Assembly (NCBI GenBank): GCA_903857825.1
Contig: CAIOGI010000009.1
Coordinates: 7,203 to 71,202, forward strand
Direction: 5' to 3'
Origin: Candidatus Tayloriibacteriota bacterium
GTDB lineage: Bacteria > Patescibacteriota > Minisyncoccia > Phycocordibacterales > PALSA-1337
DNA length: 64,000 bases
Part shown: piece by piece, positions 21,009 through 60,906 of the stretch
How positions within the stretch are numbered: the stretch's first letter is position 1
Layout: each line of letters begins with the position of its first letter
Made by a program: the position numbers and the translations under genes
Notes under the pieces: generated by a model
Seen by the model: the letters and a program-made list of their open reading frames with translations, nothing else
What the model was told of the DNA's origin: nothing
Databases searched by the model: none

Positions 21009-21130
21009 GTGTGGTGATCAACACCTCAATATGTCAAAGGAAGAAAAAATTAATATTAGAATGATGCAAAAAAACAAAAACGAACAGAGGAAGCTGTAGA
21101 GATACGCAAACGAGGATTTGGTCAGCAATT

Positions 21131-21307
21131 ATTTCCCTGCGAACGGTTCAGATGTTTCTCCTTTATTGGCAAAGTAGAATGAGAAGGCCATAGAAGCCAG
21201 AATCATGAAATCCTTGGGATCTATCTTGCTATAAAACATGCCGATAATTGTTGCCACTGCCATCAGAATAAAGACTATTTTCGATGCTGATGAATATATA
21301 CTTTTCA
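21131..21307 (-). CDS. small membrane protein (59 aa), possible lysis accessory
   Basis: Hand-translated: MKSIYSSASKIVFILMAVATIIGMFYSKIDPKDFMILASMAFSFYFANKGETSEPFAGK. Lies just downstream of the endolysin. Confidence 0.25.
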
Positions 21308-21338
21308 TAAATTTATTTTAATTGATTAATAATTCGAC

Positions 21339-46515: not shown

Positions 46516-46521
46516 TGATTA

Positions 46522-46572
46522 TTAAACTACCCTCCCCGCCTTCACCACATGCTCCACCAACATATTCGTATA
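46522..46572 (-). pseudogene. displaced GAPDH C-terminal fragment C (17 codons)
   Basis: YTNMLVEHVVKAGRVV**. Nucleotides 46531-46572 are ~95% identical to 546-587 of fragment A. Confidence 0.6.
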
Positions 46573-46705
46573 CTTTACATAATTATTATAACACTTAATT
46601 CTAATGTTTCTAATATCATCATGAAAATATATGCTTAATACATGTGGGAATTTATGATTATTTTGTTTCAAAGAATTAGCAAATTATATACAAACACTTT
46701 AAAAA

Positions 46706-51551: not shown

Positions 51552-51865
51552 AGTTATGTATTATAGCAATATTTGACTGTGGATATCTAATTTGACACAC
51601 TGTGCTTAGTATTATACTATTATAAACATGAAAAATTGGAGAAATAACACGAATATGCATTGCAAGCCGCAGTCCCTTACTGTCGGATCAATTTTCGCGT
51701 ATGCCAGAACAGGCACACTTACGCTCAGTCGTGATATTTCTCATATACTTATGAACTAATCTATTCATTAAAATGTACTCTAGAAAAATCCCGACTGGAC
51801 GCAAGTTGGGATTTTTTCTAATTCCACGTCCAGGGTAGTTAATACGGTTCATCGAAAACAAAACA

Positions 51866-57421: not shown

Positions 57422-57529
57422 GTCCCGTATTATACCTCAACTCGTAATTCAAGAATAGGAAGACGTAAAAAAACAAAACCATCAATATTTTTTGATGGTT
57501 TTATTTTGACCCTCACTATGACTCCCGCC

Positions 57530-58076: not shown

Positions 58077-58448
58077 CTAATTCGTAGGAGGTGATCGTAA
58101 ATTTATTGCTTGCCATTTCAATTCCCCACGTTTGAGTACAAAGTAACTAAAAAAGGTTTCTGCATTAAGTAGACCACTTCTAAGAACTTTTAAATTAGAA
58201 AAGTATAAAACCAATAAAAGCAATATTGAAGTCGCGAAAAGTACAATAGATATAATGGTGGCGAGAGAAAGTGAACCAGCATGATCAATGTGTGAATTTG
58301 CTGAGATAGGAACATTATGAGTATGACCAGCGTGACCAGTGTGAGCTGTTGGCAAACTGATATGTGAACATAGGATAAAAGACAGGCTAAGTGAGAGAAT
58401 TATTATTGCGGAAAAAGTATTATTAAATCTAAAATTCCTAATGTTCAT
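58077..58448 (-). CDS. membrane protein with His-rich periplasmic segment
   Basis: HTGHAGHTHNVPISANSHIDHAGS lies between two TM helices. Confidence 0.35.
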   Translation of the reverse strand: MNIRNFRFNNTFSAIIILSLSLSFILCSHISLPTAHTGHAGHTHNVPISANSHIDHAGSLSLATIISIVLFATSILLLLVLYFSNLKVLRSGLLNAETFFSYFVLKRGELKWQAINLRSPPTN

Positions 58449-58487: not shown

Positions 58488-58871
58488 CTATATAATATAA
58501 TGCCCAAAAACTAGAATACCAATAACAACAGCTACTGTGGCTGAAATAAGAACAGCACCCGCAGCAACGTCCTTTGTATCACGAGCATATGGATGATATG
58601 AGGGTGAAGTAAGGTCTATATCTATTTCAATAGCAGTATTAAATGCCTCAGAAACGAAAACAAAGCCAACTGCAAATACCAACATCATCCATTCAAATTT
58701 TGTAATATTAAAATATATACCAAGAACAATTACCAATACTAAAGCCATTAAGTGTATCCATGCATTATGAGTAGTTTTTATAAAAATCCAAACTCCTCTT
58801 CCTGCATGCACGAAGCTCTTTGCCCTTTTTATAATTGAAAACTTTTTACTAATATCTGTAGTGTTTGTCAT
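58488..58871 (-). CDS. dgkA: diacylglycerol kinase (prokaryotic DgkA family)
   Basis: AFNTAIE...ARDTKDVAAGAVL and three TM helices. Confidence 0.7.
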   Translation of the reverse strand: MTNTTDISKKFSIIKRAKSFVHAGRGVWIFIKTTHNAWIHLMALVLVIVLGIYFNITKFEWMMLVFAVGFVFVSEAFNTAIEIDIDLTSPSYHPYARDTKDVAAGAVLISATVAVVIGILVFGHYII

Positions 58872-59392
58872 TGCTTAATCGTAACACAAATGGGTCAAAA
58901 TCACATTTAGATTATTCTGAGTACTAAAGGCTGGACATTATTAGTGCATTGTGTAATATATGAATGGAATTGCTTGCCTTGACAGAAGAAGGAGCAATCA
59001 GGAACAACAGAAGACCACTATTCGATGATAGTAGATAGTACTAGTGGCAACCCTCTGCCTGAAGCCTTCTTTCACTTAGGTCATATCCGCTGGAAATACG
59101 ACACTCTCGTGAATTCGGCGACAAGGCCTCTGTCCCTTAGGCTCAAACTGGGGCAGTGGTTAAAGTGAGGTGAATCGAGCACCTGAAAAAGGACAGAAGA
59201 GGCTGGCAAGGTTATCTGTAGCTTGGTAGTAATTGGATATACCACACAGACACGGCGTCGGTTTTCTCAGAGTCTGAAGCGTGGCATGTGAAAAGTGCTA
59301 AATTTACGCTATTGTCCTGAGGTGAGCAATTCCACCATCTTCTCCATAGGTACCGGACCTATGGAGATCTTCTTTTACTAAATTATCTATTT
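58872..59392 (+). ncRNA. candidate structured ncRNA locus (class unassigned), ORF-free and GC-rich with a 3' intrinsic terminator
   Basis: No ORF of 60 aa or more on either strand across 520 bp. GC ~47% against ~33% in the flanks. Ends at a terminator hairpin at 59356-59392. Confidence 0.35.
59356..59392 (+). terminator. intrinsic terminator hairpin
   Basis: CTCCATAGG-taccgga-CCTATGGAG followed by ATCTTCTTTT. Confidence 0.5.
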
Positions 59393-60070
59393 TCACTTAC
59401 TAGAGAAGGCATCATTTATTACCCGAAGTAATTCACCTGGTTTATAAATTATCTTAAATGGATTACCAATCTCTAGTCTTTCTTTCTCATGGAAACCCCA
59501 ACTGACCCCTATGCTTTTTACATTTAGAACGTTTGCTTCTCTGATATCTCCAAGTGTGTCGGTAACAAATACACAGTGCTCAGCATCAGTATTGTACTTT
59601 GAAAAAACCATTCTAATCTTTTCAACCTTGCTAGCATGTACATCATTACCCATTATTTCAATAAAGTATTGATCGATTTTATATCCTTTCAGTAAGTCTA
59701 CAATCATATCACTCATGGATGATGAAATAATGATCATTGAATATTCTTTCGACAATTCTTTAATTATCTCATCTATACCAGGTATCATTACTGCTGAATT
59801 TCGCATTCTAGGATTATATTCTTCAAAAAACTTTATATCGTGTCGGCATTTTTCATCATGCTTAATAGGATCAACTTTCACATCGTTAATATTGCCTTCA
59901 AAAATCTTTCTTTGTTCTTCTACGGTAACATTTGGGCACATCATTTTCTTTACTTCAAAGGCAATCTGAAATGAATCAACGATAACACCGTCAAAGTCGA
60001 AAAGTATAAATTTTGTTTTCATAATTAATTTATAATCCATCTGAACTTTCAACATCAAAACTCTAGCCAT
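59393..60070 (-). CDS. HAD-superfamily hydrolase
   Basis: ILFDFDGVIVDS, motif I. Confidence 0.75.
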   Translation of the reverse strand: MARVLMLKVQMDYKLIMKTKFILFDFDGVIVDSFQIAFEVKKMMCPNVTVEEQRKIFEGNINDVKVDPIKHDEKCRHDIKFFEEYNPRMRNSAVMIPGIDEIIKELSKEYSMIIISSSMSDMIVDLLKGYKIDQYFIEIMGNDVHASKVEKIRMVFSKYNTDAEHCVFVTDTLGDIREANVLNVKSIGVSWGFHEKERLEIGNPFKIIYKPGELLRVINDAFSSK

Positions 60071-60288
60071 AATATGATCACCTATTTCTCCACAGTCAAA
60101 GTATTTTCATTTTATGTATCAACGCTACTCGAATGCAATAACTTATTTTGCGAAATTGCTGCGGGACTTGGAATCGGACCAAGATTTTCTCCTTCAAAGG
60201 GAGACGTACTACCATTATACGATCCCGCAATTTTCTAAAATACCCTTAATCCAACCTGCAATCTTGCGATTCAAATCAGTACTTGCAA

Positions 60289-60906
60289 CTATATTAACCC
60301 GTAAAAGGCCAATATACAAGACTCCTGTATTTTTCGTCTAGTATTTATCTTATTCTTCTTAAAATAAATATTATTAAAGAAACTTAGTGGTAGATTGAGA
60401 TAATTACTCCACAATTTTTTAACCTCCATTATTCTATCACTGTGAGATTCATGTATATACAAACTTAATATTAAGTCATCATTTTTTAGTCCTATACATT
60501 CCTTAATCCATTTTATAAATAATGCAATCATTTTTGGATCAGAATTAGAGAAACTGACTCTACTTGATGGCCTATAGTCTTTCTCTTTAGCACCTTCTGC
60601 CCAGTATAGAGCAGTACCAATTAACCATAACTCCCTTTTGGATATAGATTTTATATCTTTTAATGCATTTTCGATCAAATCTGTTTGCTTTTTTATTCTC
60701 TTACTCCTCTGTGCATCTGCACCTCGCTTTTGTGCTTGTTGCCTTTTCACAGTTATGTTCTGTCTTTGAGCAACACTAAGACCGACCTCTCTTAGCCAGA
60801 GAGATATTGTAGATTTCGCAACAGGAACTTCTTTCATAATTTCAGAGTATGTTTTTCCTTGCTTGCGAAGAGTTATTGCTTTTTGCTTTAAGTCTTGCTT
60901 TACCAT
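60289..60906 (-). CDS. HTH + LAGLIDADG-like endonuclease-domain protein
   Basis: N-terminal HTH (GKTYSEIMKEVPVAKSTISLWL). LIGTALYWAEGAK resembles the LAGLIDADG helix. Confidence 0.4.
   Translation of the reverse strand: MVKQDLKQKAITLRKQGKTYSEIMKEVPVAKSTISLWLREVGLSVAQRQNITVKRQQAQKRGADAQRSKRIKKQTDLIENALKDIKSISKRELWLIGTALYWAEGAKEKDYRPSSRVSFSNSDPKMIALFIKWIKECIGLKNDDLILSLYIHESHSDRIMEVKKLWSNYLNLPLSFFNNIYFKKNKINTRRKIQESCILAFYGLI

Follow-up and report, generated by a model that had tools for sequence, protein, structure and literature searches.

Generic bacterial sRNA and ncRNA genes combine a sigma70-like promoter with a hairpin/T-run terminator, do not encode protein, lie in variable islands and are specific to a strain or lineage. 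The candidate RNA gene described here shares these attributes. Typical base-pairing sRNAs are 50-250 nt long, whereas the candidate would measure ~370-410 nt, and its 16-bp end-to-end helix is more typical of stable RNP RNAs. Stable bacterial RNAs are usually built in this way, with a long end-to-end helix that protects both ends.

The tmRNA (SsrA, RF00023) is likewise ~370 nt in length, its 5'-GG... pairs with ...CC-ACCA-3', and its encoded CCA stands directly before the terminator, as in the candidate. In contrast to tmRNA, the candidate has no T-arm, no D-loop analog and no tag frame, carries A3-U instead of G3-U, and gives no ARAGORN or Rfam match; its helix is continuous over 16 bp, where tmRNA has a 7-bp acceptor stem. 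The RNase P RNA (RF00010/RF00011, including the diverged CPR forms, PMC8172020) is comparable in size and has a P1-like helix joining the ends, and further likeness lies in a long hairpin followed by GAAGCC and in an ACAGAA-GAGGCU stretch that is able to pair with this GAAGCC. However, CR-I (GAGGAAAGUCC) and CR-V (ACAGAAnnnGGCUUA) are both absent from 58872-59392 at ≤2 mismatches, the bulged U is lacking, and the P4-like 3' strand of the candidate is 114 nt from P1' instead of adjacent to it, leaving 124 nt for the whole S-domain and P15-P18.

The precursor of 4.5S/SRP RNA has a terminal helix directly before an RCCA-like single-stranded 3' tail, an arrangement that the candidate repeats and that forms the minimal RNase P substrate determinant. 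The candidate is three to four times larger than 4.5S/SRP RNA, has no SRP domain IV motif and no Rfam SRP match, and its processing would be predicted from this likeness. Taking the locus as a whole, we give about an even chance to the explanation that the gap encodes a stand-alone, lineage-specific ncRNA gene of ~370-410 nt on the plus strand, without a match to any family.

The ORF-free gap and its neighbors

The gap at 58872-59392 belongs to a 64,000-nt stretch of DNA that was analyzed as a whole and is called the window. The composition of the window (1-64000) is heterogeneous, with GC of ~0.42-0.51 at 22-46 kb and 0.33-0.39 elsewhere, and from 40 kb onward the minus strand carries nearly all of the genes. 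With 518 bp, the gap is the biggest ORF-free gap in the window. The original prediction had stated that it contains no ORF of 60 aa or more on either strand and is located between two minus-strand genes, and both statements proved correct. ORFs running from start to stop reach at most 47 aa (plus strand) and 54 aa (minus strand), no stretch between stops is longer than 61 aa, and the flanking genes encode a prokaryotic diacylglycerol kinase (DAGK) and a HAD phosphatase (Table 1). The ORF-free status of the gap is real. The gene array around it is compact and runs on one strand, and the ncRNA candidate, on the plus strand, is antisense in orientation to all its neighbors. Further ORF-free gaps of 280-450 bp occur at 530-975, 1975-2355, 21018-21338 and 51561-51838, none with an Rfam match at E ≤ 5.

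The same prediction had set a GC content of ~47% against a ~33% genome. This contrast is overstated: the core (59000-59300) has 0.48-0.50 and the flanks ~0.33-0.37, whereas the gap overall has 0.43, the mean of the 64-kb window is 0.40 and coding stretches reach 0.56. The GC excess is thus local, relative to the immediate neighborhood rather than to the window, and the case shows that local GC excess by itself overstated the evidence for an RNA gene. The GC skew is positive in the body of the candidate and negative in the flanks (flank GC ~0.35).

Table 1. Positions of the features in and beside the gap, in the numbering of the window.
Feature	Position	Strand	Remarks
DAGK (prokaryotic diacylglycerol kinase)	58488-58871	-	flanks the gap
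Sigma70-like promoter	58932-58959	+	-35 TGGACA 58932-58937, 16-nt spacer, -10 TAATAT 58954-58959; 9/12 consensus matches
Proposed primary transcript	58966-59377	+	~412 nt; predicted from promoter, P1, ACCA and terminator
Body, start to ACCA	58966-59337	+	372 nt
P1 5' strand, GGAAUUGCUUGCCUUG	58966-58981	+	pair probability 0.98 for the first 15 pairs
Predicted long interrupted hairpin	58998-59062	+	RNA 33-97; UCAGG/CCUGA p=0.99, CAGA/UCUG 0.86, CCACU/AGUGG 0.95; single-sequence prediction
Predicted hairpin with symmetric AA/AA internal loop	59088-59120	+	RNA 123-155; pair probabilities 0.94-0.95; prediction
Predicted GC-rich hairpin, 13-nt loop UUAGGCUCAAACU	59130-59156	+	RNA 165-191; p=0.83; long-range pairings compete
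P1 3' strand, UGAGGUGAGCAAUUCC	59318-59333	+	pairs with 58966-58981
ACCA	59334-59337	+	directly after P1; acceptor-stem-like 3' end, possible mature 3' terminus
Intrinsic terminator	59341-59377	+	11-bp perfect stem, 5-nt loop (59341-59367), then TCTTCTTTTA (T-rich tail 59368-59377)
HAD phosphatase	59393-60070	-	flanks the gap

Signals at the two ends of the candidate RNA

The promoter-like site predicts a transcription start at G58966, which is also the first base of the terminal helix P1. The promoter match is of chance frequency in this AT-rich DNA, since a 1.4-kb scan found 6 sigma70-like sites where 6.2 were expected.

The P1 helix comprises 16 bp (12 Watson-Crick and 4 G-U pairs) and appears when 58960-59380 is folded, in the MFE as well as the centroid structure. 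When the 372-nt body was shuffled with its dinucleotides preserved, long-range stems had a mean maximum length of 10.2 bp (sd 1.1), and none of 120 shuffles reached 16 bp (z=5.1). All four non-Watson-Crick pairs of P1 are G-U on the plus strand and turn into A-C mismatches on the minus strand. The mismatches of the repeat are therefore G-U compatible on one strand, which suggests pairing at the RNA level.

The P1 helix is followed directly by ACCA, and GCAATTCC-ACCA at 59326-59337 pairs with GGAATTGC at 58966-58973. The gene for tRNA-Gln in the window has no encoded CCA, its discriminator being followed by CAATTT (60140-60157), so that the ACCA after P1 is not a general habit of the tRNA-like genes of this genome. 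The terminator starts 7 nt past P1, in the order ACCA, 3 nt and hairpin, and its T-run is found on the plus strand only, the minus strand continuing with AGATGGTGGA. Perfect hairpins of at least 9 bp number only four in the 64 kb, the one at 59341-59367 among them. Another of the four, an 11-bp AT-rich perfect hairpin at 57475-57502 just after the DUF6803 gene, has T at 7 of 10 positions on the minus strand against 4 of 10 on the plus strand, and so resembles a terminator of the minus strand.

Both strands of ~0.95 Mb, made up of the window and the fetched loci, were scanned for a helix of at least 12 bp combined with NCCA and a terminator; the combination occurs only here, apart from one far weaker case at locus L057, with a 14-bp helix holding 8 Watson-Crick pairs and a terminator stem of 6 bp. 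In sum, a promoter-like site (by consensus only) and a strong terminator lie on the same strand of a gap that has no coding capacity, and the whole looks like one plus-strand transcription unit, in which a promoter precedes a 372-nt body closed end to end, followed by ACCA and the terminator.

The original prediction of a candidate ncRNA ending in a terminator agrees with this anatomy, in which a promoter-like +1 falls on the first base of P1 and ACCA and a plus-strand terminator follow, and with the lack of any coding signal. Its plus-strand hairpin with T-run is confirmed, and the stem is corrected to 11 bp at 59341-59367 in place of 9 bp at 59356-59392. It had found by eye no tRNA-like 3' end of a tmRNA, thereby overlooking an end of that sort in GCAATTCC-ACCA. 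In folding, P1 lies beyond the shuffles (0/120), while the overall energy (z about -2.4 to -2.7) is within the background of the contig.

Folding of the interior

Between the two strands of P1, single-sequence folding predicts three hairpins (Table 1). For the 372-nt body, the plus strand gives an MFE z of -2.4 to -3.0 and the minus strand one of -1.2; the minus strand of 58960-59380 gives -2.8. Control windows of equal length, 58 in number and taken from this contig, had a mean MFE z of -0.66, with an sd of 1.5 and a 5th percentile of -3.5. The z of the body is inside the range of the coding windows of the contig, and the overall folding energy is therefore not exceptional. Furthermore, the ensemble diversity and positional entropy of the body equal those of shuffles, and the interior offers many mutually exclusive, competing helices. 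By these folding models, the evidence for structure falls short of what the anatomy implies, and apart from P1 the thermodynamic measures are unremarkable.

Comparison with known RNA families

In the 64-kb window, the Rfam 15 models (4227) recovered only tRNA-Gln (60158-60229, minus strand) at gathering score. Relaxing the cut-off to E ≤ 10 for 901 nt and 386 nt, and to E ≤ 5 for the whole window, added only chance-level matches to eukaryotic snoRNAs, miRNAs and lncRNAs, in searches where scores below roughly 15-20 bits would not show. ARAGORN found no tmRNA at thresholds from 100 to 70%, and at 80% its tRNA search gave one spurious match outside the element. The RNaseP_bact_a/b, tmRNA, SRP and 6S models, which the original prediction had named for such a search, thus gave no match at E ≤ 10; its suggestion, from size, of RNase P RNA or tmRNA found no support on the 386 nt at this threshold or from ARAGORN down to 70%, while its failure to find the universal P4 sequences of RNase P RNA was borne out by the absence of CR-I and CR-V.

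Each family was also compared with the gap by its own motifs. For RNase P RNA, RF00010 and RF00011 gave no match at gathering score or at E ≤ 10 (64 kb, 901 nt and 386 nt), and the sole P4-like pairing (GAAGCC with ACAGAAGAGGCU, RNA 98-103/234-239) has the wrong spacing and no bulged U. For tmRNA, the third acceptor pair is A-U and not G3-U70, the 17 nt before the acceptor strand are unable to form a T-arm, no GGTTCGANTCC-like T-loop motif is found in the region, and there is no Ala-started tag frame with a hydrophobic ...AA tail, the plus frames ending in ...TTIR, ...GQWLK, ...LKRGM and ...FTLLS. Group I introns have been reported in some CPR tRNAs (PMC8172020). Here, the first 35 and the last 40 nt cannot pair into a D-stem or a T-stem, and neither a tRNA nor an Intron_gpI match appeared at E ≤ 10. 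The SRP and 6S RNAs gave no Rfam match at E ≤ 10, and the SRP domain IV motif is absent. Threading by hand onto the topologies of RNase P RNA, tmRNA, intron-bearing tRNA, SRP RNA and group I introns failed through missing motifs or a wrong topology, and all these identities are rejected. By eye, 59206-59245 resembles the 3' end of 16S rRNA (helix 45), a likeness without Rfam support.

A highly diverged CPR housekeeping RNA, either RNase P RNA or tmRNA, could be missed by standard models. The RNase P RNAs of 10 of 35 circularized CPR genomes were reported to be under the Rfam cut-offs, and the threshold of RF00010 was lowered to 5 bits in that study (PMC8172020). The 372-nt size, the paired 5' and 3' ends and the tmRNA-like order of ACCA and terminator would fit such an RNA, as would GAAGCC after a long hairpin and ACAGAAGAGGCU, which by eye recall the two P4 strands. 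Against it stand the negative searches for RNase P RNA, tmRNA, SRP and 6S RNAs (E ≤ 10 on 386 nt and 901 nt, ARAGORN to 70%), the absence of GAGGAAAGUCC and ACAGAANNNGGCUUA at ≤2 mismatches and of a T-loop motif, the A3-U pair, the lack of a T-arm by the acceptor strand and of an Ala-started tag ORF, and the distance of the P4-like 3' strand from P1'. Moreover, a site in a variable island that is empty of the RNA at the syntenic place of a close relative is unlike that of a housekeeping gene. This reading is largely refuted, and we regard it as extremely improbable.

Coding potential

The original prediction had allowed for a short overlooked protein gene, and nothing of the kind emerged. No stop-free segment of the gap had a Pfam match at E ≤ 1, and all six frames, concatenated and compared with 5.8 billion protein clusters, had no match at E ≤ 10, a search that would also catch spurious ORF calls over homologous RNAs. 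The pseudogene test showed no similarity between the gap and the genes of the relatives' islands and no trace of a decayed gene. The putative transcript contains short plus-strand ORFs, such as the 47-aa ORF at 59025-59168 or a 24-aa ORF from 58964, and one of these might be a small-protein gene. However, none is preceded by a Shine-Dalgarno sequence at the proper distance, in addition to the missing Pfam and cluster homologs, and gene callers left the gap empty on both contigs that showed this locus, out of 15 read. There is hardly any likelihood left for a small-protein gene.

Distribution and the stretch downstream of tRNA-Gln

The source organism is a Paceibacteria (Patescibacteria/CPR) bacterium with a tiny genome. 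Its public contigs are near-identical, with 0-1 differences in 6.4-6.7 kb, so that the species is clonal in the databases, and the flanking proteins do not cluster with any others at ≥90% identity. An nhmmer search of 144 fetched loci (0.89 Mb) found no sequence related to the candidate RNA, and a covariance model of its 118-nt core, run on the window and 96 Paceibacteria loci (656 kb together), matched nothing but the core itself. BLAST against phages and plasmids gave no match to the candidate, nor did two pattern scans of viral contigs give a homolog. One metagenome pattern scan (AAAAARRACAGAAGARRCTGG) returned 44 unrelated matches, the source organism itself not being among them. In 80 GTDB loci around DAGK homologs of 59-80% identity there were no common neighbors and no nhmmer match, and the HAD homologs, all ≤60% identical, had no adjoining gap in any case. 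As no homolog was found anywhere searched, there is no conservation and no covariation for the candidate RNA.

The HTH protein at 60289-60906 (minus strand), located beside tRNA-Gln, has homologs of up to 80% identity, which yielded 15 loci. The pair of HTH protein and tRNA-Gln(UUG) (60158-60906, minus strand) is kept in all of these loci (L048, L131-L144) and is found in many Paceibacteria. The HTH protein has 205 aa in the window versus 230 aa in nearly all homologs, and the 3' end of the gene overlaps the start of the tRNA in the homologs, while the copy in the window stops 60 nt before the tRNA (60230-60288). This difference of ~25 aa suggests a C-terminal truncation or frameshift in this lineage. 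The N-terminal HTH of the protein weakly resembles the HTH domains of IS630/Sleeping Beauty transposases.

The closest relative found is represented by the JGI contigs Ga0558716_01288 and Ga0558126_00083, with amino acid identities of 92% for Ham1, 89% for DUF6803 and 84% for GDSL. The candidate RNA is absent from the syntenic site there, which is taken by other genes. Every genome examined has different DNA immediately after tRNA-Gln. In the window, this stretch holds HAD, the candidate RNA and DAGK; the close relative has two hydrolase-like and two NUDIX genes, and L048 has DAGK only, directly after tRNA-Gln. Other loci carry DUF5672/MliC, RhuM/SNase, or two transposases plus a toxin-antitoxin pair. 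The stretch is an apparent insertion hotspot. In L131 (9446-9934) and L133 (5061-5549), both of the close relative, an apparent gap of 490 bp is an uncalled homolog, with 64% amino acid identity, of the His-rich membrane protein at 58077-58448, in place of which the database has a spurious 40-aa minus-strand ORF.

Alternative explanations

The main rival to an RNA gene is that the gap, as part of a hypervariable island, is spacer or relic DNA without function. The hairpin would then end or stabilize convergent transcription (the 3' end of the HAD mRNA), the inverted repeat and ACCA would be leftovers or products of chance, and a discrete functional RNA would not arise. This rival is favored by the segment from tRNA-Gln to unk123/DUF6803, which differs in every relative examined and contains the RNA in none, by the lack of a homolog anywhere searched, by an interior no better defined than shuffles with an MFE z within the contig background, and by the chance-level promoter match. 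Such DNA would have had to produce a 16-bp helix far beyond the shuffles, and the coincidence of this helix with the predicted +1 and with a plus-only terminator 7 nt downstream is an unlikely one. Neutral DNA should here drift to a GC of 0.27-0.35, as in the gap at 46519-46705, and not to 0.48-0.50, and a decayed-gene trace was not found. We consider the spacer or relic origin doubtful, and still a serious contender.

The same inverted repeat could belong to DNA instead of RNA, as the terminal inverted repeats of a MITE-like non-autonomous mobile element (~370 bp) or of what is left of one. Inverted ends that match perfectly over 10 bp (TGGAATTGCT/AGCAATTCCA), the insertion hotspot by tRNA-Gln with transposases there in relatives (L139), and the weak IS630-type HTH of the neighboring conserved protein speak for a mobile element. 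However, it would be a single copy, neither the 64 kb nor the 0.89 Mb of other loci containing a second body or end sequence, and target-site duplications are absent at both boundaries. It is also GC-rich, not AT-rich, and has its own terminator, and the G-U compatibility of the four mismatches in the extended repeat points to pairing in RNA; a MITE is very unlikely here. A minus-strand feature, namely a long structured intercistronic region or DAGK 5' leader in a HAD-DAGK transcript, would agree with the neighboring genes, all of which are on the minus strand, with possible read-through given that no minus-strand T-run follows HAD, and with the z of -2.8 for the minus strand of 58960-59380. 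When the hairpin is left out, though, the body gives z=-1.2, and the G-U pairs of P1 are lost as A-C mismatches. In addition, 130-430 nt separate the GC-rich part from the start of DAGK, a promoter-like site on the minus strand (58964-58937) directly precedes DAGK, none of the riboswitch or leader families matched, and DAGK of L048 directly follows tRNA-Gln without this region. We rate a minus-strand leader as low in probability as a MITE.

Interpretation and significance

For the stand-alone plus-strand RNA gene, the following course can be proposed from the sequence. Transcription would start at G58966 from the sigma70-type promoter and would end at the intrinsic terminator. Nucleotides 1-16 would pair with nucleotides 353-368 into a long terminal helix, which would close a multi-branched, GC-rich body and shield both ends. 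The 40-nt terminator trailer may then be trimmed to give the acceptor-stem-like ACCA end; the precursors of tRNA, tmRNA and 4.5S RNA undergo such 3' trimming. Because the site is in a hypervariable stretch and the nearest relative recovered does not have the RNA there, we infer that it is probably an accessory RNA, regulatory or protein-binding, rather than a housekeeping one.

A further-reaching reading, that CPR/Paceibacteria have a class of stable, structured RNA of ~370 nt not described before, carried in the variable region linked to tRNA-Gln, with a long terminal helix, an acceptor-like ACCA and a protein partner, appears unlikely. With no homolog found and with unremarkable thermodynamic measures apart from P1, "structured" and "novel RNA class" are putative labels, and the present status is that of a single-species candidate in an accessory region. 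The main practical value of the analysis is negative, in that the gap is not to be annotated as rnpB or ssrA. To our knowledge, hardly any of the non-coding RNA repertoire of CPR bacteria has been explored, and a well-delimited RNA gene of ~370 nt with an acceptor-like end and without a matching family would be a useful entry point to it, if it is expressed and has relatives.
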